The notes beneath the pieces are model-generated. The model was not told the origin of the DNA, did no database searches, and saw nothing but the letters and a program-made list of their open reading frames with translations. Shown piece after piece: positions 2,895 to 20,812 of a stretch of DNA of 43,082 nt. Where the stretch lies: positions 1 to 43,082 of the forward strand of contig MHDO01000021.1 of NCBI GenBank assembly GCA_001805005.1, given 5' to 3'. Made by a program: the position numbers and the translations under genes. This stretch comes from Nitrospinae bacterium RIFCSPLOWO2_12_39_16 (GTDB lineage: Bacteria; Nitrospinota; Nitrospinia; UBA9942). Numbering within the stretch: position 1 is the first letter of the stretch; each line of letters begins with the position of its first letter.

Positions 2895-3004
2895 GGATAT
2901 TATAAAACCACAGAAAACACTGAAGGCACAGAAAAAACCGGTTAAAAATAAATATTTTAATTCAGTGTCTTCAGTGCTTCAGTGGTTTAAATCAGGTCTT
3001 TGTT
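2895..3004 (+). repeat. Gene-boundary hairpin element, copy 1 (CACTGAAG-type arms)
   Basis: 5' GGATATTATAAAACCAC. Left arm 2905-2933 and right arm 2961-2988 match 24/29 as reverse complements. 3' GTGGTTTAAATCAGGTCTTTGTT abuts the antiporter stop. Confidence 0.75.
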
Positions 3005-4145
3005 ATTCCGAATCTAAGATATCTTCCGAGTGAAGAGGCATAAACCATTTCTGTGCAACGAAGGTTGGAATCACCGCACTCGCAATAAGCACACCTGTCA
3101 AAACAGAATACTGCACCTGATTTATAAAACCTGAATTTAAGCCGAATACACTTGCGATTAACCCGAATGTTAAGCCTGTGCTCATTAAAAGTGTTGTATA
3201 AATATTTCCACTGGGAATATATCTCTTTGCAAGGAAGTAAACACCAATAAATTTCATCAATTGTTTTATTACAAAAAAGGCAATGAAAAGCCCGAAAGCT
3301 GACATAATCAATGGAAATGAGACCTTTAAGCCCCCGACAATGAAAAAGAGGGGGGTGATAATTGCAAAGGAAACAGTTCTTAACCTGTTCTTTACGACCT
3401 TCGTCCCGGATGTCTCAGTAAAATGTTTTGACATCATTAGTCCCAAAACGAATGCCGGCAGTATTGCATGCCCCTCTCCTAAATTTGCGAAATAGATGAA
3501 TATCAGTAACAGGAGAAAAATATATTTTATCTCAGGCTCAATTACCTTGTTTTTTAATTTCGGGTTATCAAAGACCTGATGGGAAAATCGGGTTGCCAGT
3601 ATTATTACAAATATGGAAATTATAATAAAGATGAATGTAAATAAGTTTGGTTTTATAAATATGACACTCAATGTAAGTGCAACCCACATATTTGTTATAA
3701 AGGTAGATGCCATGATCAATTTGCCAATCTCTGTTTTTGAAAGATTCGTTTCTATAAGAACTGAGTAAACTACGGCGATAGAGGTTTCTGATAGGGCGGT
3801 AGCGACAATCAAAGATGCAGGAAGGCTCCAGCCTATAACATAGTATGTGTAAAGGAATGCCCCGATAAAAGGAATTAAAAAGGAAAATGCACCAATAAGA
3901 AAGCTCTCTTTAAATTTATCCCTCATTAATCGTGTGTCAATCTCGGCACCTGCCAAAAAGGTTAAAATAATTCCGCCGAAGTTTGCCAGATATAGCATCC
4001 ACTCTTCAGTCTTAAGCCCCAGATTTCCAGAGACAGCCCCTAAAAGAATCTCTATTATTGCTACTGATATACCAATTCTTAATGAAATAAGGCTTGAGAA
4101 AAAGACTAATAAGCCAACAATTAGTGGGGTAAAATCCGCCTTCAA
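3003..4145 (-). CDS. Cation:proton antiporter (Na+/H+ exchanger family, CPA2-like)
   Basis: 380 aa, about 11-12 TM helices, FLAGAEID motif. TTG start at 4145 is supported by SD GGGAGG 6 nt upstream. Confidence 0.85.
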   Translation of the reverse strand: MKADFTPLIVGLLVFFSSLISLRIGISVAIIEILLGAVSGNLGLKTEEWMLYLANFGGIILTFLAGAEIDTRLMRDKFKESFLIGAFSFLIPFIGAFLYTYYVIGWSLPASLIVATALSETSIAVVYSVLIETNLSKTEIGKLIMASTFITNMWVALTLSVIFIKPNLFTFIFIIISIFVIILATRFSHQVFDNPKLKNKVIEPEIKYIFLLLLIFIYFANLGEGHAILPAFVLGLMMSKHFTETSGTKVVKNRLRTVSFAIITPLFFIVGGLKVSFPLIMSAFGLFIAFFVIKQLMKFIGVYFLAKRYIPSGNIYTTLLMSTGLTFGLIASVFGLNSGFINQVQYSVLTGVLIASAVIPTFVAQKWFMPLHSEDILDSE

Positions 4146-4238: not shown

Positions 4239-4790
4239 TTAAAGTATCATTGCTAACTTTTTGGATATTTCCTCTTTTGTCAGCATACCTATGAAACTGT
4301 CTTTCACAAGGCCGTTTCTATCTATGAAGAAGCTCATTGGTATTCCAAATACCCTATAGGCATCGCTGGTAGTTCCGTCAATATCCAGTAAGATTGGGTA
4401 TGTCATCTTATAATCCTTTGCAAATTTAGATACCTTTGATTCATTTTCCTTTATGTTGACCCCGAGGATTACAAGCCCATTATCCTTATTTTCATCATAA
4501 CCTTTCTGGAGGTCGGGTATCTCCTCTCTGCAGGGGTGGCACCATGTTGCCCAGAAATTAATTATAACCGCCTTCCCCTTAAAACTGCTTAACTTTACAT
4601 CATTGCCGTTTAAGTCCTTCAATGTGAAATCCTGTGCAGGTTTTGGTTCGGAGGCTTGAGATTTTTTTTCTTCCTGTGAAATATCTGCTGATTTATTGCT
4701 ATCACAATTAAACGGCATGATAATCAATAATAGAAAGGCAAGAATTAATTTTAAACTTTGAATTTTGAACTTTGAGCTTTTATTATTCAT
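4239..4790 (-). CDS. TlpA/ResA-like periplasmic thiol:disulfide oxidoreductase (canonical WCHPC)
   Basis: FWATWCHPCREEIPDL thioredoxin-fold CXXC, signal anchor LILAFLLLIIMPF. ATG at 4790 overlaps the upstream stop (ATGA, 4787-4790) and has SD GGAGGG 6 nt upstream. The track start at 4823 is less likely. Confidence 0.85.
   Translation of the reverse strand: MNNKSSKFKIQSLKLILAFLLLIIMPFNCDSNKSADISQEEKKSQASEPKPAQDFTLKDLNGNDVKLSSFKGKAVIINFWATWCHPCREEIPDLQKGYDENKDNGLVILGVNIKENESKVSKFAKDYKMTYPILLDIDGTTSDAYRVFGIPMSFFIDRNGLVKDSFIGMLTKEEISKKLAMIL
4747..4781. repeat. Heptanucleotide array AATTTTG/AACTTTG x5
   Basis: AATTTTA AACTTTG AATTTTG AACTTTG AGCTTTT. Encodes SSKFKIQSLKLI of TlpA. Confidence 0.85.
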
Positions 4791-5608
4791 ATTCCCTCCG
4801 GATATACAATGGGTAAATCCCACCTGAATATTCTATCATCTTTTGTAGCCAGATTTCTTATTATCAGCTCAAAATATTCTGCCTTATCATCGAGTATCTC
4901 TTTTTTAAATTTTACTATCCCCTCCCTGTGATGCTTATCCCATGCCTCAAACCTCAGCTCCCATCCTTTATTTGCAGGATATTCTTTATTATTTACCCTC
5001 AGGTAGGATAATTCATCCAGAGGATAATTCTCAAGCCTGCCGTCATGAACATTTAAACTTATTATAAATACTATGTTATTTTCAACATCATATTTTTTTA
5101 TCAGGTCAGGTGCACCTATAGATTTAAGGTATTCGGATGTGGTGTATGTAATATCAGCATATACATCTCCATATCCCATATCATTCCTCCATAAGAGCCT
5201 TTGAATCTGTTTTACTATTCTATAAGGCAGATTAGACTGCGGGACTGGATAGGTTTCTTTTAAATAATTTGTTATAACATCTGCCTCTTTACTGGTCATC
5301 TCAACCCCTTTTTCCGCCCTCATCCTGTCCACTACCTCTATCCACCCTGCAGGGGGGAGAAGGACCATTTTTATAACCTCATCCCCGTGGCATTTGCGGT
5401 AACATTTTTGCTGATACAATACCCTCGCCTCTTTTTCGCTCAAATTTTTTATTATGGAGTGTTTGAACATAAATAGCTTTGTTAAACTGTAAACATAATC
5501 AATATCATCCTTAATGCCAGAACCTTCGGAGATTGCAAATAGGATTGCCGGTATGGAAATGGAGGTGGCTATAAGAAAAACAATAGAAATTTTTTTAAAT
5601 AATTTCAT
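4787..5608 (-). CDS. Secreted hypothetical protein with a CX3CH (CYRKCH) putative haem c-type site
   Basis: Signal/anchor MKLFKKISIVFLIATSISIPAILFA. QQKCYRKCHGDEVIKMVLLPPAGWIEVVDRMRAEKGVEMTSKEADVITNYLKETY resembles single-haem binding domains followed by a W..v.RM...g..ls..ea..i..YL helix pair. The motif was verified codon by codon at 5387-5404. Confidence 0.6.
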   Translation of the reverse strand: MKLFKKISIVFLIATSISIPAILFAISEGSGIKDDIDYVYSLTKLFMFKHSIIKNLSEKEARVLYQQKCYRKCHGDEVIKMVLLPPAGWIEVVDRMRAEKGVEMTSKEADVITNYLKETYPVPQSNLPYRIVKQIQRLLWRNDMGYGDVYADITYTTSEYLKSIGAPDLIKKYDVENNIVFIISLNVHDGRLENYPLDELSYLRVNNKEYPANKGWELRFEAWDKHHREGIVKFKKEILDDKAEYFELIIRNLATKDDRIFRWDLPIVYPEGI

Positions 5609-5650
5609 TAATAAAAATCTGTGAAAATCTGTGGTTAAGTTATGTTTTTA
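5609..5650 (+). repeat. Gene-boundary element, right half only
   Basis: AAAATCTGTG x2 then GTGGTTAAGTTATGTTTTTATTC. Lies between the FGE-fold stop and the start of the next gene. Confidence 0.55.
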
Positions 5651-6466
5651 TTCTTTGTAGTCCATCACACATCTGAATCCGTAATCATTAGACTCCATAT
5701 CAGGGCTTTCACCGAGTCTTACAGCGCTTCGGGTGCTGACTGCCGGGCTTAACCATGAGCCCCCTTTAATAACCCTAAGCTCTTTTTCCTTGTCATACCA
5801 TGTATCTGTCCATTCCCAAACATTCCCTGCCATATCATGGACACCATAAGGACTCTTACCCTCTTTATATTTATCCACCTCTGTTGTGCCTCCAAATGTT
5901 ATAGAACCTGATGTCTCCTGTGCAAACTGTCCTACCCTGGCACTCCCGCCCAATCCAGATTCATATGAGTTGCACATTAATGTATCAAATTCATTGCCCC
6001 ACGGATATATCCTTCCATCTGTCCCCCTCGCAGCCTTTTCCCACTCTTCCTCGGTTGGGAGTCTCTTTCCTGCAGATTTGCAGTATTCATTTGACTTATC
6101 CCATTTTATGTTTACTACAGGGTGTCTTGCCCTGTCTGATGGAAAACTATGGTTTGGGTCAAATTTTTTATAGTCAGCATTTGTTACCTCATGGATGTCT
6201 ATATAGAATGGTGGAAGGTTAATTTTCTTCTTAGGTTCTTCATCAGAATACCACTTTGACTTACCGCCTAACTTTTTGACTGTATCTTCTATTTCTGAAG
6301 TATCACTCCCCATTATAAACTCACCGGCAGGTATCAGAACCATCCCTTCCTGGGTTAAGGGAGATTCTGCCGATATTGCAAATTGCAAATTGCAAATTGC
6401 AAAAGTCAAAGTTATACCTAAAAAATATTTTGCTTTAAGTATTTTTCTGTGTAAATCTGTGTTCAT
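5648..6466 (-). CDS. FGE-sulfatase (SUMF1/EgtB/PvdO) fold protein, secreted, lacking the FGE catalytic Cys pair
   Basis: MVLIPAGEFIMGS, YIDIHEVTNADYKKF, AGKRLPTEEEWEKAARGTDGRIYPWGN, GNVWEWT, RVIKGGSWLS, GFRCV. No Cys between GGSW and GFRC. The N-terminus is encoded by repeat DNA, so the start is uncertain. Confidence 0.85.
   Translation of the reverse strand: MNTDLHRKILKAKYFLGITLTFAICNLQFAISAESPLTQEGMVLIPAGEFIMGSDTSEIEDTVKKLGGKSKWYSDEEPKKKINLPPFYIDIHEVTNADYKKFDPNHSFPSDRARHPVVNIKWDKSNEYCKSAGKRLPTEEEWEKAARGTDGRIYPWGNEFDTLMCNSYESGLGGSARVGQFAQETSGSITFGGTTEVDKYKEGKSPYGVHDMAGNVWEWTDTWYDKEKELRVIKGGSWLSPAVSTRSAVRLGESPDMESNDYGFRCVMDYKE
6375..6402. repeat. Heptanucleotide array ATTGCAA x4
   Basis: Exact 4 x 7 nt. 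Encodes FAICNLQFAI in the FGE-fold protein N-terminus. Confidence 0.9.
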
Positions 6467-6497
6467 CTGTGGTTAATTAGGTTTTTGTTTTTCCTTT
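6444..6497 (+). repeat. Gene-boundary element, right half only; 3' terminus forms the CcmH-like C-terminus
   Basis: TTTCTGTG TAAATCTGTG TTCATCTGTG GTTAATTAGGTTTTTGTTTTTCCT. The last 21 nt are identical to 41498-41518. Confidence 0.7.
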
Positions 6498-6950
6498 TTC
6501 TAAAAAATCCAGCACCCCTGTTATTATTAGATATAATACACCTGACCATACGAAGACAAGGGCAATGAAAAGGGCTATATCACTTATCGGATAGCCCCCC
6601 CTTGTGATTTGATACCATTTTCCATGTATTCTCTGCAGTGGTGTAAGCATTGACTCTTTTCCAAACCGCTTAAAAAAGTATCCCTCAATCTCATCCTTGC
6701 CTGCACCTGCCATCAGCCTTTTTCCTATCATATCCTTCCATTCCATTCCGCAGCTCATATGACAGTCTTCAAGGACCATCGGGCATTCACACGGGCAGGC
6801 AATGTTATGGGATATGCCCATCACAGTATCCGCAGCAGCAGAAGGCCAGAAGACATATTTTATAACAGAGAAGATAATTATAATTGATAAAGATAGAAGG
6901 AATATTTTTATTTTCATCTTGAAATTAATGAAATTATAAAATTTAGCCAC
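6477..6950 (-). CDS. CcmH/NrfF-like membrane-anchored protein with atypical Cys cluster
   Basis: IACPCECPMVLEDCHMSCGMEWKDMIGKRLMAGAGKDEIEGYFFKRFGKESMLTP followed by a TM helix. The layout matches CcmH (Cys motif, then an i..mv..G.sd.eI..yfv.rYG..vl..P helix), but the usual LRCxxC is replaced. The start may be ATG 6917 (MKIKIFLL) rather than GTG 6950. Confidence 0.55.
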   Translation of the reverse strand: MAKFYNFINFKMKIKIFLLSLSIIIIFSVIKYVFWPSAAADTVMGISHNIACPCECPMVLEDCHMSCGMEWKDMIGKRLMAGAGKDEIEGYFFKRFGKESMLTPLQRIHGKWYQITRGGYPISDIALFIALVFVWSGVLYLIITGVLDFLEKGKTKT

Positions 6951-7094
6951 AGACTTTCACGGACTAAAATATTAAAAAAACAATAATTAGGAGAAAGGGG
7001 GCATTTTCTTTTTTTCCTAATTTCTCCATTTCTCCTTAATCTTTTTATTTGTTTTTGGTCTGTGCGAGTCTGTGGCTAATCAATCTTTGTTCTT
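6921..7094 (+). repeat. Gene-boundary hairpin element with G5/C5 core
   Basis: 5' GAAATTATAAAATTTAGCCACAGACTTTCACGGACT. Core AGGAGAAAGGGGG...TTCTCCTTAATCTTTT. Right arm GGTCTGTGCGAGTCTGTGGCTAATCAATCTTTGTTCTT. Confidence 0.8.
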
Positions 7095-7882
7095 AATCTG
7101 CGTATAATTACAAATGCAATTAATATTACAATGCCTATACCGAGCAGCCATATCCCTTTTCTCCTTTCAATCAAGTCCTGTTTTGACATTGCAGAGAATT
7201 TTATATCTACGGAAGGCATAGTATCATCTTTAGCATATTTAATCTTAAATCTTACATCCTGTCCACCTTTTATATCCTTGAAAGTATAGTTATAATAATT
7301 TAAATCCTTCTTATTGACCTTGCTCATTGGCTCTGGTGAAAGCTTAAATTCTGTTGACCTCAGTGGCTCCTGAATGCTTACCTCAAGTGTATCTATCGGG
7401 TATATTAGTTTTATAATATATTCAAAGTCCCTAAGAAATCTGCCCGATTTTATATTAAACGGAGAGTATTTAAAATCTATGAAGAAATCGGCGTATGGAA
7501 GCTTTACGGATGTCTCGTTGTATTCGCCCTTATTAACAATATTATATAGCTGGCAAAAGTGCTGTCCCCCAGGAGAGAGGCTGCATACATCTGTTAGTTT
7601 TGTTACACCCTTTGGCAATGTAAATGTCACCTGATTTGGAAAGGCATCTTTATCGGCAAATTTCCCTTCATATACCACAAGGACATCAGATGATTCATAT
7701 TCAGGCATTATTGAAACCTTCATTCTACCTATTTTAAGGTCAGAAGCATTAGAAACAGTGACGAGTGACAAGTGACAAGTGACCAGTAAAAATAAAAAAC
7801 CACTGATTGCTGACCACTGACCACTGACCACTCTCTTCTGTCCTCTGTCTTCTGTCTTCTGTCTTCTGTCTTCAGTGTTCAT
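7076..7882 (-). CDS. Hypothetical exported protein with C-terminal membrane anchor
   Basis: Long ORF in an operonic position. N-terminal region RRQKTEDRGQKR + FLFLLVTCHLSLVTVSNA-SD resembles a signal peptide, but it is encoded by heptamer arrays. Beta-rich body, C-terminal TM IWLLGIGIVILIAFVII + RRLR. ATG 7882 is preceded by GGGGTGG. Confidence 0.6.
   Translation of the reverse strand: MNTEDRRQKTEDRGQKRVVSGQWSAISGFLFLLVTCHLSLVTVSNASDLKIGRMKVSIMPEYESSDVLVVYEGKFADKDAFPNQVTFTLPKGVTKLTDVCSLSPGGQHFCQLYNIVNKGEYNETSVKLPYADFFIDFKYSPFNIKSGRFLRDFEYIIKLIYPIDTLEVSIQEPLRSTEFKLSPEPMSKVNKKDLNYYNYTFKDIKGGQDVRFKIKYAKDDTMPSVDIKFSAMSKQDLIERRKGIWLLGIGIVILIAFVIIRRLRTKID
7757..7876. repeat. Three adjacent heptanucleotide tandem arrays
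   Basis: AGTGACN x4 (7757-7787), CACTGAC-type x4 (7801-7832), CTTCTGT-type x6 (7835-7876). Confidence 0.9.
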
Positions 7883-8567
7883 GTAATAACCACCCCACAA
7901 GGTAACTTTTATATATTGTCATCCAGTTTGCCAATATCAGGATTGACATGGTGATAAGTAGCCCGCCGCTGATACGCTGGACTATATTTCTAATATTTTT
8001 TAAGCCGTCAACAGATAAGGTTTTTGAAATTGTAAGTCCTGCAATACTAAATGCAGTGGAGATGCCGAGAGAATAAAAACTGAGCATCACTGTCCCCCTA
8101 TATACTGTTTCAGATGACTTGGTAAGGTTGTAAATAGATGTCAGGGTTGGTGTTACACAGGGTTGATACGCCATTGCAAAGGAAAATCCAATTAAAAGCC
8201 CGCCAAATCTCCTATAGTATTTCCCTTTGTCTTCAGCTATACGAAATAGTCCGATAAAGTAAAGACCCATTAACAAGAGAAATACACCGCCAAATTGATT
8301 TAAGATAGTTAAATATCCGAAAATTATATTACTGATGGATGTAGCAGAAGCACCCAAAATTATATAACCTGCCATAAATCCTATAAGACACAATATACCC
8401 CCTGTAATTATATCTGATAACGCCTCTACCCATTTTCTATCCCCGATTTCTATCATTGTCAGCCCTATGATATAAGCCAAGAAAAATGGTGTCACCTGAA
8501 AGAGACAGAAAAACCAAATAGAGAAGAAGTTATGCAGACCGCCTATATATGCTTCAAAAATAGTCAT
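7872..8567 (-). CDS. CcdA/DsbD-family cytochrome c biogenesis thiol-reductant transporter
   Basis: 231 aa, six TM helices, with Cys in TM1 (FFCLFQVTPFF) and TM4 (YQPCVTPTL), as in the CcdA C..P pattern. Confidence 0.75.
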   Translation of the reverse strand: MTIFEAYIGGLHNFFSIWFFCLFQVTPFFLAYIIGLTMIEIGDRKWVEALSDIITGGILCLIGFMAGYIILGASATSISNIIFGYLTILNQFGGVFLLLMGLYFIGLFRIAEDKGKYYRRFGGLLIGFSFAMAYQPCVTPTLTSIYNLTKSSETVYRGTVMLSFYSLGISTAFSIAGLTISKTLSVDGLKNIRNIVQRISGGLLITMSILILANWMTIYKSYLVGWLLHEH

Positions 8568-8571
8568 AAAA

Positions 8572-8613
8572 GTCAGAAGTCAGAAGACAGATTTTCTGTT
8601 CTCTGTCCTCTGA
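8572..8613. repeat. Inverted heptamer arrays forming an intercistronic hairpin
   Basis: GTCAGAA GTCAGAA GACAGA - ttt - TCTGTTC TCTGTCC TCTGA. Spans the thioredoxin-fold stop, 5 nt from the CcdA start. Confidence 0.75.
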
Positions 8614-9241
8614 TTTTTTCTATCCTTTCCGAGATTTCTTCATATTTTTTTAATTTACCAACAAAGATAGAATCTATCTTTCCTTCTTTATTGATAAAAA
8701 TCGTAGTTGGAGTCGTTGCCACTCCATAGCCCCTTGCGACTTCCTGTTTTAAGTCAAACCCTGCAGGGAATTTGAGTTTATGCTTGTCTAAAAATTTAGA
8801 CAGGTCTGTTTCATTATCCTGAATACCTATGCCTATTAAGTTAACTCCGCTGAATTCTTCAGATGCCTGTTTCAGAAATTGTGCAGATGCATTGGAGCAT
8901 GGGCACCAGTTTGCATAGAAAAACATTACCATTGGCTTCCCATCCCCGCCTGAACCCTCGTGATGATGGGCATGGTTAGGGGAAAAGTTGAATGTTTTGC
9001 CATCTACCAATTTTAGGGAAAAATTTGGGGCTTTATCTCCTACCTTGAGGAGCGTTATTGGAGGGGTATAATTTAATATACCCCTTAAAACAAGGGCAAC
9101 AGCAACAAGGATTACAATTTTGTTAATCTGAAATGATTCACTTATTGGTGCCCCTCTTTCAATGGAGGTGTCCACTTTCTGCTCCAAGTCCTTCACTCTG
9201 GTATGTTCCTTTAACTTTAGTTCCGCTCTTTCTAAGGGCAT
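8573..9241 (-). CDS. Thioredoxin-fold (TlpA/redoxin-like) protein with CXC active site (WCPC) and His-rich insert
   Basis: VMFFYANWCPCSNASAQF read directly from the DNA (tgg tgc cca tgc). HAHHHEGSGGDGK lies just upstream. TM anchor IVILVAVALVL. cis-Pro region GVATTPTTIFI. The 5' end overlaps the upstream ORF by 83 nt, so the start is uncertain. Confidence 0.8.
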   Translation of the reverse strand: MPLERAELKLKEHTRVKDLEQKVDTSIERGAPISESFQINKIVILVAVALVLRGILNYTPPITLLKVGDKAPNFSLKLVDGKTFNFSPNHAHHHEGSGGDGKPMVMFFYANWCPCSNASAQFLKQASEEFSGVNLIGIGIQDNETDLSKFLDKHKLKFPAGFDLKQEVARGYGVATTPTTIFINKEGKIDSIFVGKLKKYEEISERIEKIRGQRTENLSSDF

Positions 9242-9710
9242 ATTCTATTTTCCTTTTTTCTATTGGTGTATTAGAGAGGTCAATCAAAATTTTGTTATTA
9301 CCAATCAGTTTTAACAGGTCATCTTTTCTGAAATCCCCTTCCCAGTTTCCAACCCATGCATTCCATGTCTGAACAATAGCAGATGCCTGATAATCTGTAA
9401 TATCAAAAAATTTCTTGTGAGGCTCCCTTGCCCTGTACTCTTCAAGGAATTTTCGCATGTGCGGGACTACTGCTATAAAGGGTGGTCCGCACCTGTGGCA
9501 ATATTTTAAAATCCTTTCCGTGTCATGGCACTGCGTGCATTTCTCTGTAGCCAATGCCTTTGCATCATCAGGGGAGTATTCCATATACCCCCTTGCCTTT
9601 ATCTCTTCGGTTATCTTTTTGCCAATACTATTGGGAACAGCCATCACCAGTGTGAACCCTGCAAGGATTACAACAAATATACTTATAAAAATTATAGTTT
9701 TCTTTTTCAT
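9159..9710 (-). CDS. Membrane-anchored c-type cytochrome (one CXXCH)
   Basis: Signal anchor MKKKTIIFISIFVVILAGFTLVMA. CTQCHD haem motif, plus a second Cys pair KYCHRCGPP. Confidence 0.7.
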   Translation of the reverse strand: MKKKTIIFISIFVVILAGFTLVMAVPNSIGKKITEEIKARGYMEYSPDDAKALATEKCTQCHDTERILKYCHRCGPPFIAVVPHMRKFLEEYRAREPHKKFFDITDYQASAIVQTWNAWVGNWEGDFRKDDLLKLIGNNKILIDLSNTPIEKRKIEYALRKSGTKVKGTYQSEGLGAESGHLH

Positions 9711-9753
9711 GTTATACCCCCCTTTAAACCTGACTTATTGTTTACTATAATAT

Positions 9754-9762
9754 ATTATAACA
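9754..9762 (-). promoter_or_regulatory. Candidate extended -10 promoter (TGTTATAAT) for the minus-strand redox/cytochrome cluster
   Basis: Plus-strand ATTATAACA is TGnTATAAT on the minus strand, about 45 nt upstream of ATG 9710. RBS AAAGGGGGG lies in between. Confidence 0.35.
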
Positions 9763-9866
9763 GAATGATATGTGAATTTAACAGATTATTTAGCTGCTGC
9801 CCCTCCCCTTATTTAAGGAGAGGCAGCAACTTGTTGAGGGAAGGAGGGAAAAAGACTAATTAACTC

Positions 9867-9898
9867 GTTTAAATATTTAAACAAATAATTATTTGTTT
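9867..9898. promoter_or_regulatory. Two overlapping perfect palindromes in the divergent control region
   Basis: GTTTAAATATTTAAAC (9867-9882, 16 bp) and AAACAAATAATTATTTGTTT (9879-9898, 20 bp) are each exactly self-complementary. Confidence 0.4.
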
Positions 9899-9936
9899 TT
9901 ATTCCCAAAGATGTTATTTTTCTTATATATTAAATT

Positions 9937-9951
9937 TGGTATGTAGTTTGC
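9937..9951 (+). promoter_or_regulatory. Sigma-54-like -24/-12 motif (TGGTAT-N5-TTGC), doubtful
   Basis: TGGTATGTAGTTTGC has correct GG-N10-GC spacing. However, the GC is only 21 nt from ATG 9972, so the predicted TSS would remove the SD. Confidence 0.25.
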
Positions 9952-9971
9952 TTTTCTAAAGGAGAAAAAAG

Positions 9972-11408
9972 ATGGATGAGGATATGAATAAAATTATTAT
10001 CATAGATGATGATGAGTCTATCTGTAAGACATTGGAGCTCCATCTAAAGAGAAACGGATACGATGTCAGTTTTGCACATACAGGTGGTGAGGGGATAAAG
10101 ATGGTAAGCGAGAATGAACCCCAGATTGTCATACTTGATATAAGGCTTCCTGATACAGATGGGATTGAGGTTTTAAGGCAGCTTAAATCTATAGACAATA
10201 ATAAATATATAATCATGATTACAGCATTTCAGGATATGGAGACTACAATAAAGGCTATGCAGGAAGGGGCTTTTGAGTATATCCATAAGCCCATAAGCAT
10301 AGATGAATTGGACAGGGCAGTGGATAATGCAGTGAGGAGCCTTAAGATACTTACAGGGGAAAGGGAAGAGACCATAAAGATACCGAAGATGAATGTTGGC
10401 GAGGGGAAGATAATCGGAAAGAGCAAGATTATGAAAGAGATATTCAAGACAATCGGTGTTGTCTCTCAGAGCAGGACAACTGTCCTGATTGAAGGGGAGA
10501 GCGGGACAGGGAAGGAGTTAATAGCGAAGGCTATCCATTTTAATAGTCCGTATAAGGGGTATCCGTTTATATCCATCAATTGTTCCGCCCTTGTAGAGAC
10601 ACTCCTTGAGAGCGAGCTTTTCGGGCATGAAAAGGGGGCGTTTACAGGGGCTTTATACCGTAAAGACGGAAAATTTACACTTGCCAATAACGGCACGCTT
10701 TTCATGGATGAGATTGGAGAGATGAGTTTAAATCTACAGACAAAACTTCTAAGAGTCCTGCAGGAGAGGGAGTTTGAGAGGGTGGGGGGGAAGGAGAAGA
10801 TAAAGACAAATGTGAGGGTCATAACAGCCACGAATAAAAAACTTGATAATCTGGTGAAACAGGGAAAATTCAGGGAAGACCTTTATTACAGGCTGAAGGT
10901 GGTAACTATTGATGTCCCCCCGTTGAGGGAGAGAAAGGAAGATATACCGTTGCTTGTGGAATATATGATTAACAAAGTGAATAATGACCTTAGTAGAAAT
11001 GTGAGGAAAATATCAAATAAGGCACTTGAACTTTTACTGAATAATCCGTGGGTTGGAAATGTCAGGGAGCTTGAAAATGTAATTACAAGGGCTATTCTTC
11101 TTTCAAGAGAGGATAGGCTCGGCGAAGAGCATTTTACCCTGTTTTTAAAGGGGGATACAGGCAAACCAATAGAACATAAATTAGTGGTGGATGCTAATGG
11201 AGTGCGTGGGCATGAAATAAAAGATGATTCGTTAAATGACATTGAGAAGATACACATAGCGAAGGTGTTGAATTTTACAAACTGGCATAAGGGGAAGGCT
11301 TGTGAAATTCTTGGAATAACAAGGCCAAGATTGGAGAGGAAGATAAGAAAATATGACATTAAATCAGTGGAAAAAATATCAGAAAAAATATCAGAAAAAA
11401 TAACTTGA
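9972..11408 (+). CDS. Sigma-54-dependent response regulator (REC - AAA+ - Fis-type HTH), NtrC family
   Basis: REC (IIIIDDDES...ILDIRLPDTDG). Walker [15 protein letters not shown] loop in [16 protein letters not shown]-terminal HTH KACEILGITRPRLERKIRKY. SD AAGGAG 7 nt upstream of the ATG. Confidence 0.95.
   Translation: MDEDMNKIIIIDDDESICKTLELHLKRNGYDVSFAHTGGEGIKMVSENEPQIVILDIRLPDTDGIEVLRQLKSIDNNKYIIMITAFQDMETTIKAMQEGAFEYIHKPISIDELDRAVDNAVRSLKILTGEREETIKIPKMNVGEGKIIGKSKIMKEIFKTIGVVSQSRTTVLIEGESGTGKELIAKAIHFNSPYKGYPFISINCSALVETLLESELFGHEKGAFTGALYRKDGKFTLANNGTLFMDEIGEMSLNLQTKLLRVLQEREFERVGGKEKIKTNVRVITATNKKLDNLVKQGKFREDLYYRLKVVTIDVPPLRERKEDIPLLVEYMINKVNNDLSRNVRKISNKALELLLNNPWVGNVRELENVITRAILLSREDRLGEEHFTLFLKGDTGKPIEHKLVVDANGVRGHEIKDDSLNDIEKIHIAKVLNFTNWHKGKACEILGITRPRLERKIRKYDIKSVEKISEKISEKIT
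11364..11402 (+). repeat. 12-nt tandem repeat TCAGAAAAAATA x2 plus one 15-nt variant unit (3 units)
   Basis: Encodes the C-terminal SVEKISEKISEKIT tail of the sigma-54 activator. Confidence 0.85.
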
Positions 11409-11660: not shown

Positions 11661-11816
11661 ATTATTCCACTTAATGTTGAATTATACAATAATTAAGGTT
11701 GTCATAATATAAAAATTCAAATAGAAAGGAGGTGAATGTTGGTTAGTTAGTTGTTAAATGAGGATGTTTTAGTTAATTAGGTTGGGGGAAATTATTTGAA
11801 GAGGAGGATAAAAAAT

Positions 11817-12944
11817 ATGGGCAAAGGGAAATGGATAATGTTGTTAATAGCAATTTTTACAATCAGCGTCTCTGTGGAAACGGCTATCTCTACAAAGGCA
11901 TTCGCAGCAAAGATATCTAAAGAAGAGTTGGAAAAGGCTAAGAAAGAAGGGGATCAGTCTGATGCAGCATTGGAAAAGGCGAGAGAGAGTTACGGAAGAG
12001 AGGCTGATGAGGCAAATGTTGAGTCCTTTGAGACAAAGACAACTGTAAAAGGGTCAGGTAAGTCCGTTTACGGTGTAACAGGTTTTGATTATCTAACAGG
12101 TATTGGTAAGATGGCGTCTACAGTTGAAGGGACAGAAAGTGCAAAGAACAATCCATTGGTAGGTCAGATTAACAAGAGATGGGCAACTAAATGGACTGCC
12201 AAGAGTAAGGACTTAAGTAAAGTGGGCGAATCTCGTTCTGGTTGGGCAAAAGAGACAGGAGTTACAGAGGCATGGGATAGAAAGGTAAAAGGAGCATCAA
12301 CATTGGGTGGTGATTATAACGAATGGGTAAATCAATGGAACAGCCTGACAAGACCGGAATCAGCAACAGGAGAAACCACTGTTGCAGGTGCTGACCCTGC
12401 ACAGGGTGCCCACTGGTTCAGCTTTTTCTGTGTTCACTGCCATGGATGGAGCGGAAAGGGAGATGGTCCTACAGCAGCAATGTTAGACCCAAGGCCAAGG
12501 AACCAGACCAATGGAAAATATATGAACCATGTCAGTAATCTTGAGATCTTTGCAGTTATAAAGGGTGGTGGTCCTGCAAGGAACCTTTCAGAGGCAATGC
12601 CTGCATGGGGCAATGTCCTTCAGGATCAGGACATCTGGAATGTAGTAGCATTCATGCGATCCATTGCAAAACCAACATATAATGCAAAATCAGAAGAGGG
12701 CAATGTTACAGCAGCCAATGCAAAGGATAGTTCTGAATTTAAAGACCTCAATGAACAGCTTGAACTTGAGGGCACAATGGGTGGAAGAGGCTCAGGAATG
12801 GCTGGAGGGTATAGTTCTCCTGGCGGCGGCAGATTGGCAAGCAGGCTGGTAGGAGTGAGGACAAAGGGTAGCGCAAAGGATGAATCTGCAAGGATTGGTG
12901 ATAGTGAGTTTACAAGGACTTCTGTAAAGGAGACTGATAAGTAA
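11817..12944 (+). CDS. Secreted protein with C-terminal class I c-type cytochrome domain
   Basis: Signal peptide MGKGKWIMLLIAIFTISVSVETAISTKAFA. FCVHCHGWSGKGDGP haem site and AMPAWG distal Met. SD GAGGAGG 9 nt upstream of ATG 11817 (the track TTG 11796 is less likely). Confidence 0.85.
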   Translation: MGKGKWIMLLIAIFTISVSVETAISTKAFAAKISKEELEKAKKEGDQSDAALEKARESYGREADEANVESFETKTTVKGSGKSVYGVTGFDYLTGIGKMASTVEGTESAKNNPLVGQINKRWATKWTAKSKDLSKVGESRSGWAKETGVTEAWDRKVKGASTLGGDYNEWVNQWNSLTRPESATGETTVAGADPAQGAHWFSFFCVHCHGWSGKGDGPTAAMLDPRPRNQTNGKYMNHVSNLEIFAVIKGGGPARNLSEAMPAWGNVLQDQDIWNVVAFMRSIAKPTYNAKSEEGNVTAANAKDSSEFKDLNEQLELEGTMGGRGSGMAGGYSSPGGGRLASRLVGVRTKGSAKDESARIGDSEFTRTSVKETDK

Positions 12945-13090: not shown

Positions 13091-13211
13091 ATATAGGAAA
13101 TTATAAAATTAACCACAGGTAAACACAGATGAACACTGATAGAATAAAGAAAAAAAGTTTTTATCTGTGTTAATCTGTGTCCATCTGTGGTTTCATTAGG
13201 TCTTTGTTCTT
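13091..13211 (+). repeat. Gene-boundary hairpin element (CACAGAT decamer arms), reference copy
   Basis: ATATAGGAAATTATAAAAT-TAACCACAGGTAAACACAGATGAACACTGATAG ... TTATCTGTGTTAATCTGTGTCCATCTGTGGTTTCATTAGGTCTTTGTTCTT. The arms are about 26/32 complementary. Confidence 0.85.
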
Positions 13212-13213
13212 AT

Positions 13214-14158
13214 ATGATAGAAGTAGAAAATCTTACAAAAAAATATGGCAATGCGAGGGGAATTAATGATGTCACCTTTACTGTAGAGAAGGGTGAAATC
13301 CTTGGATTTCTTGGTCCGAATGGTGCCGGCAAGACAACCACTATGAGGATTATCACCTGCTTTATGCCTGCAACAAGCGGAAAGGCGAGGGTTGCGGGTT
13401 TTGATGTCTTTGAGGATTCCCTTGAGGTTAGAAAAAGGATAGGGTATCTTCCAGAGAGTGTTCCCCTTTACACTGATATGCAGGTGCCGGTTTATCTTGA
13501 ATTTGTTGGGGGGTTAAAAGGTGTTGACAGGAGGGATATAAAGAGAAGGGTAGCTCAGGTGATGGATGACTGCGGTTTAAATGCAGTGGCAAAGAAATAT
13601 ATTGCTGAACTTTCCAAGGGTTACAGACAGAGGGTTGGGTTGGCACAGGCACTTATAAATGACCCGGAAGTTCTTATCCTTGATGAACCGACTATTGGAC
13701 TTGACCCAAAGCAGATTATAGAGATAAGGAGTCTTATAAAGGGACTTGGCGGCAAAAGGACAGTTATATTAAGCACACATATCCTGCCAGAGGTTAGTAT
13801 GACCTGTCAGAGGGTCATAATAATAAATGAAGGAAGGCTGGTGGCAGTAGATACACCACAAAACCTTACTGCCCAGCTTCAGAAATCACAGCAGTTTATA
13901 GTGAGGATTGACGGTCCGGAACAAGAGGTCCTATCGGAGATTGGAAAAATAAATACTGTATCAAGGGTTGCAGTTAAAGAGAGCGGGGCAGACGGGATTA
14001 ATTCCTATCTGGTGGAATTTAAGAAAGATTCAGATGGCGGTAAAGATATAGCTCCTGTCATTGTCAGAAAAAATTGGGCATTATATGAGATGCGTCCTAT
14101 AGGGATGAGTCTTGAGGATATATTTATTAAGCTTGTAACAGAAGAGAAGATACACTGA
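13214..14158 (+). CDS. ABC transporter ATP-binding protein (ABC-2 / GldA-like)
   Basis: Walker [10 protein letters not shown], signature LSKGYRQRV, Walker B VLILDEPT. The conventional N-terminus [12 protein letters not shown] begins at ATG 13214. The track extension is repeat-encoded. Confidence 0.95.
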
Positions 14159-14220
14159 TAACTTGCAACTTACAATCTATAACTTAGTTGTCAGTTGTCA
14201 GTTAATAGTTATTATTAATA

Positions 14221-15000
14221 ATGAAAAATTTTTATCTTATATTTCAAAAAGAACTCAGGTCATATTTTAATTCACCAATCGCCTTTGTCGTTATCACCAT
14301 ATTTCTTATAATCTCAGGGTATTTCTTTTATACTATATTTGCCACATTCAGCACCATCAGTTTCCAGGTAATGACCAATCCCATAATGGCGCAGCAGTAT
14401 AATCAGTTAAATATAACAGAGATGGTTGTCAGGCCGTTCTTTGCCAATATAAGCCTCTTCATGCTCATAATGCTGCCAATGCTTACAATGAGGATATTTT
14501 CTGAAGAGAAGAAGAGTGGAACGATAGAACTCCTGCTGACATACCCTGTAAAAGACTCTGAGGTTATACTTGGTAAATTTGCCGGTTGTATGGGGATATT
14601 TACTATAATGATTCTCCTCACCCTGCCATGTATATTTCTCATAGAATTGTTTGGTGAGCCTGAGATGGGTGTTGTATTAAGCGGCTATGTGGGGCTGTTT
14701 TTAATGGGGGCAGCGTTTATATCACTTGGGATATTTGCCTCATCCGTTACTGAGAACCAGATTGTGGCTGCCGTTGTATCCTTTGGCTTTCTGCTTATAT
14801 TCTTCATGATGGGCTATTCGGCGGGTTTTGCCAGTGAGACCATAGGAGGTATTTTAAAATATCTGTCTTTTACGCCTCACCTCTACAATTTCGCAAAAGG
14901 TGTCCTTGATACAGAGGATATCATGTATTATTTATTATTTACTCTCTTCTGCATCTTCCTGAATATGAGGTCATTGGAGTCAAAGAGATGGAGAGGATGA
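14221..15000 (+). CDS. ABC-2 type transporter permease (GldF-like)
   Basis: 259 aa, six TM helices. EEKKSGTIELLLTYPV motif typical of ABC-2 permeases. Adjacent to the ATPase. Confidence 0.85.
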   Translation: MKNFYLIFQKELRSYFNSPIAFVVITIFLIISGYFFYTIFATFSTISFQVMTNPIMAQQYNQLNITEMVVRPFFANISLFMLIMLPMLTMRIFSEEKKSGTIELLLTYPVKDSEVILGKFAGCMGIFTIMILLTLPCIFLIELFGEPEMGVVLSGYVGLFLMGAAFISLGIFASSVTENQIVAAVVSFGFLLIFFMMGYSAGFASETIGGILKYLSFTPHLYNFAKGVLDTEDIMYYLLFTLFCIFLNMRSLESKRWRG

Positions 15001-15001
15001 T

Positions 15002-16591
15002 ATGAAAACGATTACTTATATACTCGGTATTATCGGTTTAATCCTGATTTTTGCTGGCGGTATTATATATGCCATTCAGTCAACCCTTAGTATAACTGCT
15101 GCTGTTTTCCTCTGGGTGGGGCTTCTGCTCGTCCTCTTCTTTCTTTATGTAAACTTCTCTGATATAAGGAACTTTATCCTCAAGAGGTCAACCCGCTATG
15201 GGGCAAATATGGCGGTGGTCATAGTGATATTTCTGTGTGTGATTGTCCTCCTCGGTTTTATGTCTGTAAACCGCAAGAAAAGGGTTGACCTTACAAAGAC
15301 AGGCAGATATACCCTGTCAGAGCAGACAATAAAGATTTTAAAATCCCTTAAAAAAGATGTGAAGGCAGTGGCATTTTATAGAAGCGAGGAAGAAACCTAT
15401 CATGCCATGCTGAGACAGAACGCTGAGGACCTGCTCCAGGAATATTCATATCATATACCTAAATTTACCTTTAGATTCATAGACCCCGACAGGAACCCCG
15501 GGCTTGCAATGAAATATGGTGTATCTGAATACAGGATAATTCTCCTGATGGCAGGTGGTAAGCAGGAGAAGATAGGATTTGAGAGTGAGGAGAAGCTTAC
15601 AAATGCCCTTATTAAGGTAACAAGGGATGAGGTTAAAACAATATATTTTGTAAAGGGGCATGGGGAAAATGATATCTCAAGTATTCAGAAACTGGGCTAT
15701 AAGGCGGCGAAGGATGCTGTAGAAAAAGAGAATTATCTTGTAAAGGAACTGCTCCTTATGAATGAGGAGAGGGTGCCGGCGGGTGCATCAGTTGTCATTA
15801 TCTCAGGGCCAAAGAGAGATTTTTTACAGGATGAGTTAGACAAACTAAAAAAATATGTAGAAAATGGCGGGAGCCTATTGGCTATGGTTGACCCCGGGCA
15901 TCCGCTTACAATAAAAAACTTCCTTGCAGGATATGGATTTAAGGTGGGCGACGATGTAATCTTTGATACTCAGAGCCGCGTGTATGGTGCTAATGAATTA
16001 ACCCCTGTTGTATATCAATATGACAAAGACCATCCATTGACATCAGAATTTAATCTTGCAACATATTTTTATCTTGTAGGTACTGTTGATATTGAAAAGG
16101 ATAAAAAGAAAGGTCAATATCAGCTTGCCATGACAGGCCCAAACAGCTGGGCTGAAAAGGATTTAAAAAAGTGGAGCGAAACCGGAGAGGCATCTTTTGA
16201 TGAAGGTAAGGAGAAGAGGGGGCCTTTATCCATTGCTGCAGTAACAACTGTTCCTGTAAAGGGTTCATCTGACGCCGGTGTTGACGAGAGTGGAAAGCTC
16301 AAAGAAGGGAGATTTAAATTCGGCAAAATTATAGCTTTTGGTGATTCCGATTTTGCGAATAATACTAATATCAATCTTGCAGGAAATGGAGAGCTTTTTT
16401 TAAACACTATAGGATGGCTTGCCGAAGAGGCCGACCTTATATCCATAAGAAAAAGAGATGCCAAAAACACACCTGTAACCCTCACAGTTGCACAGGGAAG
16501 GGCAATTTTCTGGATACCTGTAATTGTTATACCTTCTCTGGTGCTTATCTCAGGCATTGGTATATACAGCAGAAGAAGATGGATGAGATGA
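15002..16591 (+). CDS. GldG-like ABC-transporter auxiliary protein
   Basis: N-terminal TM pair and a C-terminal TM. IIAFGDSDFANNTNINLAGNGELFLNTIGWL matches the GldG family signature region. Start is 1 nt after the permease stop. Confidence 0.8.
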   Translation: MKTITYILGIIGLILIFAGGIIYAIQSTLSITAAVFLWVGLLLVLFFLYVNFSDIRNFILKRSTRYGANMAVVIVIFLCVIVLLGFMSVNRKKRVDLTKTGRYTLSEQTIKILKSLKKDVKAVAFYRSEEETYHAMLRQNAEDLLQEYSYHIPKFTFRFIDPDRNPGLAMKYGVSEYRIILLMAGGKQEKIGFESEEKLTNALIKVTRDEVKTIYFVKGHGENDISSIQKLGYKAAKDAVEKENYLVKELLLMNEERVPAGASVVIISGPKRDFLQDELDKLKKYVENGGSLLAMVDPGHPLTIKNFLAGYGFKVGDDVIFDTQSRVYGANELTPVVYQYDKDHPLTSEFNLATYFYLVGTVDIEKDKKKGQYQLAMTGPNSWAEKDLKKWSETGEASFDEGKEKRGPLSIAAVTTVPVKGSSDAGVDESGKLKEGRFKFGKIIAFGDSDFANNTNINLAGNGELFLNTIGWLAEEADLISIRKRDAKNTPVTLTVAQGRAIFWIPVIVIPSLVLISGIGIYSRRRWMR

Positions 16592-16596
16592 AAGAG

Positions 16597-16670
16597 TTTC
16601 AAGCTTCAAGTTTCATGTTATAAATCACGATTTTCAAATCTTGCAACTTGCATCTTGCAACCTGCAACTT
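16597..16670. repeat. Heptamer arrays TTTCAAG x3 and CTTGCAA x4
   Basis: 16597-16617 and 16640-16670, between GldG-like and DUF4340-like genes. Confidence 0.8.
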
Positions 16671-16675
16671 TCGTT

Positions 16676-19931: not shown

Positions 19932-20564
19932 TTATTTATCCTTTGCACATCTAAAACCAATATATTCATGCATATCGTCGGGTATACTCATAAGGGTAGA
20001 GGTTGTCTTATTTAAATCCTCACCCTCAAAATAAGAACCTCCTCTTACGATTCTGTATTGTTTTTTACTCTCCCATGCATCTACCCACTCCCATACATTA
20101 CCCGACATGTCATAAACCCCATAAGGGCTCTTCCCTTTTTCAAATGACCCAACCTTTACAGGTCCGTTCCTTCCTGCCTCGCTTGTGTTTGCCTTTTTAC
20201 CATCTAATTTATCTCCCCACGGATATATCCTTCCATCTGTCCCCCTTGCAGCCTTCTCCCACTCCTCCGCCTTAGGAATCCTCTTCCCTGCACCTTTGCA
20301 GTATTCCTCAGCATCAAAGTAAGAAATCTCAACTACAGGAAAATCCTCTTTTCCTGCAGGAAAAGTATGCTCAGATTTAAATTTCTTGAGCTGGGCATTT
20401 GTTACCTCGTATTTATCAATATAAAAATCACCTACTTCTATCTTTTTCTTATCCTCTCCATATAAAAATTTGCCCCCCGGTATTAGAACCATATCATCAG
20501 CGGCATTTGAGATTGATACAATTGCAAATACTGCAACTGCTACTAAAAAAGAAAAAAACTTCAT
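19932..20564 (-). CDS. FGE-sulfatase fold protein, secreted, Cys-less paralogue 2
   Basis: MVLIPGGKFLYGE, YIDKYEVTNAQLKKF, AGKRIPKAEEWEKAARGTDGRIYPWGD, GNVWEWV, RIVRGGSYFE, GFRCA. Confidence 0.85.
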   Translation of the reverse strand: MKFFSFLVAVAVFAIVSISNAADDMVLIPGGKFLYGEDKKKIEVGDFYIDKYEVTNAQLKKFKSEHTFPAGKEDFPVVEISYFDAEEYCKGAGKRIPKAEEWEKAARGTDGRIYPWGDKLDGKKANTSEAGRNGPVKVGSFEKGKSPYGVYDMSGNVWEWVDAWESKKQYRIVRGGSYFEGEDLNKTTSTLMSIPDDMHEYIGFRCAKDK

Positions 20565-20766: not shown

Positions 20767-20812
20767 ATCCAAATTAAATTCAGATTTGAGAAATATAACA
20801 CAAGGGGATAAA

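Follow-up and report, generated by a model that had tools for sequence, protein, structure and literature searches.

The eight co-oriented genes at positions 4239-9710 on the minus strand of contig MHDO01000021.1 from Nitrospinae bacterium RIFCSPLOWO2_12_39_16 (numbered g1 to g8 in order of transcription; Table 1) are probably the Nitrospinota arrangement of an accessory set that accompanies the clade III, lactonase-type nitrous oxide (N2O) reductase L-NosZ, an enzyme that carries CuA and CuZ centres. This assignment draws on homology, conservation of motifs, synteny, gene fusions and physical linkage to the genes for L-NosZ and the copper chaperones Sco1 and PCuAC, each of which is directly observed in the comparisons described below; throughout, "the window" denotes the whole 43-kb stretch of DNA that was analysed. 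L-NosZ is said to have been recognised by He et al. 2025 (Nature 646:152) as a third, widespread N2O reductase family. Its CuA motif is of the CX3C type and the protein is annotated as Sec-type (PMC11033732), so that these cysteines would be expected to meet an oxidising periplasm. Elsewhere, copper can be loaded by Sco1 and PCuAC only once TlpA has reduced the CuA cysteines of CoxB and of ScoI (PMC6669012), and in NosZ the CuA centre depends upon PCuAC and SenC, and the CuZ centre upon NosL and NosDFY (PMC7558416, section 6.4).

To define the conservation of the cluster one genome per species was scanned with an alignment of g4, which located 80 loci, and the identities of the accompanying genes were assigned with hidden Markov models (HMMs) constructed from orthologues. 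The complete order g1-g2-g3-g4-g5-g6-g7-g8 is retained in Nitrospinota and Nitrospirota at 38-50% protein identity, and a core, g4-g5-g7-g8-g2-g3, that is without g1 and g6, is present in Gallionella, Zetaproteobacteria, Sulfuricellaceae, Rhodospirillales, Chromatiales, Sedimenticola and groundwater 'Deltaproteobacteria'; g7 co-occurs with g5 in nearly all loci. Neighbours were identified by clustering of the remaining open reading frames (ORFs), short 'conserved' clusters that were antisense artefacts being discarded. Those that recur comprise Sco1, PCuAC with an extra TlpA, a cytochrome b, a cytochrome b/c fusion and a sigma-54 regulator, together with an ABC-2 transporter that has a GldG-like auxiliary protein, a Usp+PCP_red protein, an AhbD/NirJ2-like radical-SAM protein and a beta-propeller-cupredoxin protein of ~590 amino acids (aa).

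This last neighbour is L-NosZ: it scores 756 bits against the curated NCBIfam model NF052460 (cutoff 700) for the clade III lactonase-type N2O reductase, and carries the published family-defining motifs CX2FCX3HXEM, GXHH, PHG and GPLH. The L-nosZ gene abuts the core in 16 of the 80 loci found with g4, being co-directional in six groundwater loci (g4-g5-g7-g8-g2-g3-LnosZ) and divergent in Zetaproteobacteria and Chromatiales, whilst Sco1 is adjacent in 21 and PCuAC, each time with the extra TlpA, in 11. Lactonase-type NosZ is also reported to be encoded elsewhere in genomes or classes whose clusters have no adjacent L-nosZ, i.e. DRJW01 (L026), nzgw271 (L023) and class 9FT-COMBO-42-15 (L021) (PMC11033732). 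In the reverse direction, scanning of metagenome contigs with an L-NosZ alignment gave 60 loci, of which 14 were 'long', with at least 6 kb upstream and at least 8 kb downstream of L-nosZ. The layout that emerges is [Sco1, PCuAC] g4 g5 g7 g8 g2 g3 - L-nosZ - c37 - cytochrome b ... partner cytochrome c - g1 - ABC ATPase - ABC permease - auxiliary protein. Genes of the g series occur in 13 of the 14 long loci (g1 in 13, core genes in 5), the partner cytochrome c in all 14 and the ABC transporter in 11. Two loci retain g2-g3-g4-g5 beside L-nosZ without g7, g8 or g1 (L014 and L042), the former a minimal version that reads FGE-g2-g3-g4-g5-FGE; as L014 is without the CX3CH protein (g7), that protein cannot be an obligate substrate of the system.

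The window itself contains, on the opposite strand to the cluster, counterparts of several genes that accompany L-nosZ elsewhere (Table 1). Its monohaem cytochrome c is 38-43% identical (E = 1e-60 to 1e-65) to the cytochromes beside L-nosZ in Zetaproteobacteria and Chromatiales, and across 13187-16591 the identity to the ABC genes from four L-nosZ loci (L131, L135, L136 and L151) is 52-71%. None of the L-nosZ metagenome contigs matched the window or had its GC content of 38.9% (the lowest, L131, has 40.9%), and the closest orthologues of the module in the window are only 41-69% identical. A sigma-54 regulator is adjacent in 15 of the 21 Nitrospinota/Nitrospirota-type loci, and the copy in the window likely governs the cluster.

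Table 1. Positions and properties of the cluster genes, in order of transcription, and of associated genes in the window.
Feature	Position	Strand	Length	Description
g1	9159-9710	-	183 aa	membrane-anchored; CTQCH (CXXCH), then YCHRC (CXXC), and an invariant Met
g2	8573-9175	-	200 aa	membrane-anchored thioredoxin-fold protein with CXC active site (WCPC)
g3	7872-8567	-	231 aa	CcdA-like polytopic membrane thiol-electron transporter
g4	7076-7882	-	268 aa	periplasmic double beta-sandwich, C-terminal membrane anchor, invariant CSLSxxGxHFC
g5	6477-6950	-	157 aa	CcmH-fold protein, five invariant Cys (CPCECPMVLEDCHMSC), two membrane segments
g6	5648-6466	-	272 aa	secreted FGE-fold protein without the catalytic Cys pair
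g7	4787-5608	-	273 aa	membrane-anchored; helical cytochrome-c-like domain with CX3CH (CYRKCH); immunoglobulin (Ig)-like C-terminal domain with DKHH
g8	4239-4790	-	183 aa	TlpA/ResA-type lipoprotein thiol-disulfide oxidoreductase (WCHPC)
sigma-54-dependent response regulator	9972-11408	+		Response_reg + Sigma54_activat + HTH_8; divergent from g1
monohaem cytochrome c	11796-12944	+		Pfam Cytochrom_C; orthologue of the cytochrome encoded immediately downstream of L-nosZ elsewhere
NosFY-like ABC transporter	13187-18040	+		ATPase 13187-14158, ABC-2 permease 14221-15000, GldG-like auxiliary 15002-16591, DUF4340 protein 16655-18040 (Pfam)

Three of the products would constitute a thiol relay. The g3 protein scores 19.4 bits against Pfam DsbD_TM, below the cutoff of 27.1, and its orthologues in L012 and L015 carry a DsbD_TM match; CcdA-type Cys/Pro motifs are present as FFCLFQVTP (C21) and QPCVTP (C137), i.e. 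one Cys beside Pro in each of two transmembrane helices, and are conserved as xxC(L/I)xQ(I/V)xP in 51 of 53 orthologues and as PC(V/I)xP in all 53. Both g2 (AhpC-TSA 76 bits, Redoxin 66 bits) and g8 (AhpC-TSA 113 bits, Redoxin 92 bits) match Pfam redoxin families, and g8 additionally matches the NCBIfam ResA model (141 bits). With its lipobox-like N-terminus and a WCxxC motif that is retained in 74 of 74 orthologues, g8 has the properties expected of TlpA/ResA, whereas g2 shares the thioredoxin fold but has CPC, i.e. a CXC site, in place of WCXXC; WCPC is kept by 55 of its 57 orthologues. Only the g2 of the window carries the His-rich insert, which orthologues lack and which was accordingly rejected as a clue to metal binding.

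The tethered proteins encoded by g4 and g5, and the g6 product, are the more unusual members of the set. No Pfam or NCBIfam family matches g4, for which 164 homologues were found and whose CSLSxxGxHFC motif is conserved in orthologues. The g5 product, listed in databases as 'cytochrome c-type biogenesis protein CcmH', scores 23.6 bits against Pfam CcmH (PF03918), just below the cutoff of 25, which its orthologues pass; a profile of the g5 family recovered E. coli CcmH from the PDB (2kw0, E = 7.8e-5), as well as 2hl7 (E = 5e-4). When g5 is aligned to CcmH, the first Cys of ACPCEC aligns, the column of the second canonical Cys is occupied by Glu and three further invariant Cys follow, so that the LRCXXC active-site dithiol of System I CcmH is missing. 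The five-Cys motif is present in 71 of 71 orthologues as the invariant CPCxCP(M/L)(V/I)LxDC(H/N)M(S/T)C. We found 100 homologues of g5, and a full HMMER search of 1.84 billion protein representatives returned 12 at E <= 1e-10, then a gap, and then other CcmH-family proteins; judged by sequence, the g5 group is thus a tight, separate subfamily with its own gene context. In ten Gallionella-type loci, L074 (10242-10820) among them, g5 and g7 are separated by the gene for an AhpD/CMD-fold protein with WCAFC, which scores 136 bits, below the model cutoff, against the NCBIfam 'GroundWater_YciW' (seleno)protein model.

The g6 protein, which is confined to the Nitrospinota/Nitrospirota arrangement, scores 180 bits against Pfam FGE-sulfatase, its best PDB relative being 1y4j (pFGE/SUMF2, an inactive paralogue). 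In an alignment to the FGE chain 31dc_A the stretch KGGSYMSH...YRYRCAAR faces KGGSWLSP...TRSAVR of g6, which has no Cys there; we take this FGE stretch to hold C336 and C341 of the human enzyme, the Cu(I)-binding catalytic pair. That pair is absent from g6, which has four Cys in all, of which C129 and C266 are conserved. Fusions join these genes in several loci: g4 with g5 in L064 (8980-9993, 337 aa) and in P0242, and g5 with g6 (407 aa) in L030 (5658-6881), L032 (9712-10938) and P0238, whilst L021 (1863-3539, 558 aa) encodes a fusion of a segment with multiple transmembrane helices, a Cupredoxin_1 domain and g6. The fusions among g4, g5 and g6 indicate that their products form one physical unit, and the cupredoxin fusion connects g6 to copper. 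Two further FGE-sulfatase-fold paralogues are encoded in the window, at 19932-20564 (minus strand) and 22129-23052 (plus strand); the latter has HGGHGGG near its N-terminus and comes after a Peripla_BP_6 gene (20786-22129), and the same pair of binding protein and FGE-fold gene comes after the cluster at the Gallionella locus L092.

Of the two cytochrome-like products, g1 has no relative in Pfam, NCBIfam or the PDB, its profile yielding only chance antibody matches in the last of these. Judged as a c-type cytochrome it has an invariant CXXCH and no fold or family match; all 11 orthologues aligned, those from L-nosZ loci among them, retain C58, C61, H62, C71, C74 and M85, the second motif reading YCxRC. 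In L-nosZ loci g1 is flanked by the partner cytochrome c and the ABC transporter, downstream of the cytochrome b. The g7 protein shows weak similarity to a QHNDH haem domain (E = 0.06; 19 bits against a cutoff of 25) and to SorB. Its CX3CH is kept in 60 of 62 orthologues and occupies the place of CXXCH in a weakly similar haem domain, and a downstream Met (M96) is invariant; 17 homologues were found among 5.8 billion sequences, and those few with a source name are from Nitrospinae/Nitrospinota. As of NCBIfam release 20, g1, g4, g5 and g7 are without a family model.

We infer a mechanism for the set in which every biochemical step is putative. All eight products would face the periplasm and be tethered to the inner membrane. 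The CcdA-like g3 would carry reducing equivalents across the membrane to g8, with its TlpA-type CXXC, and to g2, with its CPC, and these two would keep reduced the metal-binding cysteines of the client, i.e. the CX3C of CuA, as well as those of the copper chaperones Sco1 and PCuAC, which in Proteobacteria are encoded beside the core. They may similarly maintain g5, in which a CcmH three-helix scaffold bears five Cys, and g4, with its Cys pair and His; the g4-g5-g6 unit would in turn hold or pass on copper, and possibly sulfide, during assembly of the centres. The g1 and g7 proteins, together with the partner cytochrome c (11796-12944), might supply electrons to the enzyme or be further clients of the thiol relay. 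A bolder form of this proposal, which we put forward tentatively and regard as more doubtful, is that tethered g4-g5(-g6), kept reduced by CcdA by way of the CPC thioredoxin and TlpA, is an undescribed copper (possibly sulfide) assembly machine that builds the CuZ and CuA centres of L-NosZ in clade III N2O reducers in place of NosL, NosD and NosR, the CcmH three-helix scaffold of haem biology having been co-opted as a Cu(I)/sulfur carrier with five Cys.

Several observations weigh against an L-NosZ accessory role. Searching the six-frame translation of the 43-kb window with an HMM built from 13 L-NosZ sequences revealed no L-NosZ, so that the client in the host organism is unseen, and no gene for Sco1, PCuAC, cytochrome b or c37 is present in the window. 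L-nosZ is adjacent in only one of the 21 Nitrospinota/Nitrospirota-type loci, and at Gallionella-type loci, where Sco1-PCuAC-TlpA are present, there is no L-nosZ within 9 kb. Comparison of the AlphaFold models of g4 and g7 (predicted local distance difference test, pLDDT, scores 85 and 82) with the PDB was uninformative as to function, giving generic beta-sandwich or Ig-like matches (ERAP N-domain, ribophorin, Fab) with TM-scores of about 0.25-0.45. To our knowledge the only function established for the CcmH fold is apocytochrome thioreduction, which for g5 favours a role in cytochrome maturation. Finally, whilst the literature searched holds no description of the accessory proteins, the primary L-NosZ paper (He et al. 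2025) lay outside that search and may already list these neighbours.

The rival that has most in common with the initial annotation, which had proposed a self-contained redox module maturing an unusual haem or metal site in one of its own products, is a dedicated thioreduction branch running from CcdA through a TlpA-like to a CcmH-like protein, which would ready g7 at its non-standard CX3CH, and perhaps g1 at its CXXCH/CXXC, for haem attachment by the general haem lyase of the cell, the mature cytochromes then serving L-NosZ. We consider this unlikely, although it retains some weight because of the sole known role of the CcmH fold and the essentially invariant CX3CH. In its favour, g5 is a true CcmH-fold homologue; g3, g8 and g5 reproduce the trio of CcdA, CcmG/ResA and CcmH, all periplasm-facing, that characterises the System I (CcmG-CcmH) and System II (CcdA-ResA/HCF164) branches of cytochrome c maturation; and g7, whose CX3CH occupies the CXXCH position of a weakly similar haem domain and is followed by an invariant Met, travels with g5 in nearly all loci. 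However, g5 has CxCxC...C...C and not LRCXXC, i.e. no CXXC in the canonical register, and its five invariant Cys and Met exceed what a dithiol reductase would need; its fusion partners are g4 and g6 and no cytochrome; and L014 and L042 dispense with g7, g8 and g1. No haem lyase occurs among the recurrent neighbours of ~140 loci or, when every ORF of at least 150 aa was screened, in the window, as the initial annotation had also noted, and no CcmF, CcmE or CcsBA lies nearby; the System I partnership with CcmF, CcmE and CcmG was thus not seen in the window or among the recurrent neighbour families, the genomic partner being a copper enzyme. General Ccm systems can, moreover, mature CX3CH. The earlier idea is therefore only partly supported: the recurrent company of L-NosZ, Sco1, PCuAC, the partner cytochrome c, cytochrome b and the NosFY-like ABC transporter shows that the module is not self-contained, and nothing indicates that it is there for the maturation of a site in its own product, as L014, beside L-nosZ and without the CX3CH protein, illustrates. 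Copper handling, which it had raised as a further option, has proved the better-supported direction, albeit through other evidence, since the His-rich segment that it cited is unconserved and the HGGHGGG segment lies outside the cluster.

Two further possibilities fit the data less well than an L-NosZ accessory set. The cluster could be a general periplasmic module for copper/thiol homeostasis or cuproenzyme biogenesis (Scs-like or TlpA/Sco-like) that serves haem-copper oxidases or other cuproproteins, with the linkage to L-nosZ incidental. Many carriers (Gallionella, Zetaproteobacteria, Nitrospinota) are microaerophiles, the Gallionella-type loci pair Sco1-PCuAC-TlpA with no nearby L-nosZ, the window is itself without L-nosZ, and the same contigs carry, downstream of the cluster, genes of metal-stress type (ECF sigma factor, LTXXQ/Metal_resist, MacAB-like efflux). 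Nevertheless, L-nosZ is a rare gene and yet abuts the core in a fifth of the loci found with g4 (16/80), in several unrelated lineages and with operon-like co-orientation, the reverse search from L-NosZ encounters g1 in 13 of 14 long loci, and no oxidase subunit genes are found among the recurrent neighbour families, all of which makes such a role improbable. Least probable, in our estimation very much so, is a mainly respiratory function, in which g1 and g7 would be NosC1/NosC2-like membrane cytochromes that connect a cytochrome b complex to L-NosZ and the thiol proteins would protect or repair them: the place of g1 in L-nosZ loci, where it is downstream of cytochrome b and has the partner cytochrome c on one side and the ABC genes on the other, and the membrane anchor, haem motif and invariant Met common to g1 and g7 are consistent with this, but of the eight products five are thiol or Cys-rich proteins without a redox-cofactor motif, CcdA with two thioredoxin folds is a design for delivery of reductant and not a chain to a terminal reductase, and the Sco1 and PCuAC neighbours indicate assembly.

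Comparison with described systems places the proposed L-NosZ accessory set nearest to the TlpA-ScoI-PcuC (PCuAC) pathway of CuA assembly in Bradyrhizobium CoxB (PMC6669012) and to PCuAC/SenC2 in Paracoccus NosZ CuA (PMC7558416), with which it shares, in its proteobacterial form, a tethered thioredoxin-fold reductase (g8, WCxxC) encoded together with Sco1 and PCuAC, as well as a client, L-NosZ, whose CX3C CuA site would need reduction before metallation. It differs in that the window has neither Sco1 nor PCuAC, and the CPC thioredoxin, the five-Cys CcmH-fold protein, the beta-sandwich protein with its Cys pair, the FGE-fold protein and the two cytochromes are without counterpart in that pathway. 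As in the canonical nos clusters (NosDFY, NosL and NosR/NosX of clade I; NosB/G/H/C1/C2 of clade II), the genes adjoin a NosZ-type enzyme, the ABC-2 transporter resembles NosFY, and the membrane cytochromes and cytochrome b of the L-nos sets could parallel NosC1/C2 and NosGH. Unlike those clusters, no homologue of NosD, NosL or NosR was found with Pfam or NCBIfam, the ABC transporter carries a GldG-like auxiliary and a DUF4340 protein in place of NosD, and the thiol relay is without a described nos counterpart.

Individual components can be compared similarly. Distant, uncharacterised PF03918 proteins of CxCxC type, encountered in the full HMMER search, resemble g5 in their C-x-C-x-C ... C pattern and, at 59-78 bits, score above the cutoff of Pfam CcmH, but the g5 subfamily is set apart from them by the gap that follows its 12 representatives at E <= 1e-10 and by its own motif and gene context. 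Other inactive FGE paralogues (pFGE/SUMF2; PorK/GldK) share with g6 an FGE fold that is without the Cu-binding catalytic Cys pair, and differ in that relatives of g6 are fused to a CcmH-fold or cupredoxin domain. NirV, an FGE-fold paralogue encoded beside nirK, is like g6 associated with a copper denitrification enzyme.

With regard to the locus itself, the eight ORFs fill the whole span 4239-9710, and gene calling on identical metagenome contigs, which come from aquifer samples, gives the same eight; the co-oriented genes and cysteine motifs of the initial annotation are thus borne out, also by their conservation in orthologues. Its view of the cluster as a dedicated module of non-canonical variants holds, as the module is conserved and the WCPC, CPCxC...C...C and CX3CH motifs are essentially invariant; the outcome that would have undone it, a gene order conserved nowhere else, is decisively contradicted by retention of the order at 40-50% identity in Nitrospinota/Nitrospirota and of the six-gene core across several phyla. 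The profile-HMM searches it had called for confirmed the families of g2 and g8 (redoxin) and g6 (FGE-sulfatase), left g3 and g5 below the Pfam cutoffs and g7 with a weak match, and placed g1 and g4 in no family. Its description of g6 as Cys-less was incorrect, the protein having four Cys and lacking the catalytic pair of FGE, and the HGGHGGG that it assigned to the cluster lies at 22249, in the paralogous FGE-like ORF, and was rejected as a clue to metal handling by the cluster.

The ATGA overlap at 4787-4790 was confirmed, the minus strand reading CCG GAG GGA ATA TGA with ATGAATAAT running across. The 11-nucleotide overlap at 7872-7882 (...CAT GAA CAC TGA against ATGAACACTGAAGAC) likewise reads as described, provided that the ATG at 7882 is the start of g4; this start, and hence the overlap, is uncertain because the N-terminus of g4 (MNTEDRRQKTEDRGQK..SGQW) resembles translated repeat DNA. 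The first ~25 codons (7790-7882, minus strand; MNTEDRRQKTEDRGQKRVVSGQW) have the appearance of translated simple-repeat sequence and lack conservation among orthologues. The start of g2 is also ambiguous: on the identical contigs it is called at a GTG (9175), the alternative being the ATG at 9241. A fluoride riboswitch (RF01734; 4165-4226, minus strand; 63 bits, E = 2e-15) is located directly upstream of a Na+/H+-exchanger-family ORF (3003-4145) and, since it sits between g8 and that gene, fixes the 3' end of the eight-gene unit. The 'boundary elements' reported in the gaps between genes correspond to copies of the 7-mer CCACAGA, of which the window contains 14 compared with 3.9 expected. These occur (at 5628, 6466, 6947/7069, 13184, 18072/18191, 19304, 25132/25208 and other positions) mostly at gene boundaries and often as inverted pairs ~75-125 bp apart, such a pair flanking the 125-bp gap between g5 and g4, a pattern that suggests a small intergenic repeat element. 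Upstream of g1 (9711-9971) inspection by eye disclosed no convincing sigma-54 element (GG-N10-GC), despite the neighbouring sigma-54 activator; a sigma-70-like site is present at 9776-9749, and a strong hairpin, GCTGCCTCTCC-N8-GGGGAGGGGCAGCAGC, at ~9800-9850 (minus strand) between the divergent regulator gene and g1.

Other genes that keep company with the cluster are recorded here as observations. The Usp+PCP_red and AhbD/NirJ2-like radical-SAM pair lies after L-nosZ in high-GC loci and directly upstream of g1 in eight Nitrospinota loci. A Usp+PCP_red gene and a gene for an AhbD/NirJ2-like radical-SAM/SPASM + PCP_red protein accompany the cluster in L011 (2648-5702), L012 (1-2323), L028, L037, L039, L041, L043, L049 and L076/L077 (424-5455), the same pair is found downstream of L-nosZ in L101, L102, L106, L114 and others, and in Zetaproteobacteria a HemY-like protoporphyrinogen oxidase is present too; this association hints at a tetrapyrrole-modifying step in the system. 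Twelve Nitrospinota loci (L007, 11470-17592; L009, 15020-20891; L012, 8127-12737; L016, 12395-18435; and others) are flanked by a four-gene set comprising a PAS histidine kinase, a ~950-aa fusion of URO-D, ferredoxin and RACo (corrinoid reductive activase), a B12-binding protein and a sigma-54 regulator. Because cob(I)alamin is oxidised by N2O, this set could, as pure speculation, be a corrinoid-based sensor of N2O or of redox state. Downstream of the cluster, at 680-2848 on the minus strand, are an ECF sigma/anti-sigma pair, DoxX and an LTXXQ/Metal_resist protein, and identical contigs that extend beyond the end of the window (L001, 13619-19275) encode a MacAB-like efflux system; together these look like a metal or envelope-stress set, whose relation to the cluster could be read either way.

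Whilst L-NosZ itself (2025) and the design in which a periplasmic thiol reductant is combined with chaperones for copper centres are already known, the component set of this cluster is not represented in Pfam or NCBIfam. Clade III hosts and metagenome-assembled genomes are reported to be without canonical nos accessory genes (PMC13477213), and for the building of the CuA and CuZ centres and the wiring of the enzyme to respiration the cluster provides a concrete, conserved candidate set. Its members are CcdA, the two thioredoxin-fold proteins, the CcmH-fold protein with five Cys, the beta-sandwich protein with its Cys pair, the FGE-fold protein and both cytochromes, adjoined by a partner cytochrome c and a NosFY-like ABC transporter. 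There is a consequence for annotation, in that g5 is called CcmH yet is without the CcmH active-site motif and is found in the company of a copper enzyme. Finally, although the enzyme gene itself is not in the window, the cluster suggests that a groundwater member of the Nitrospinota may reduce N2O.

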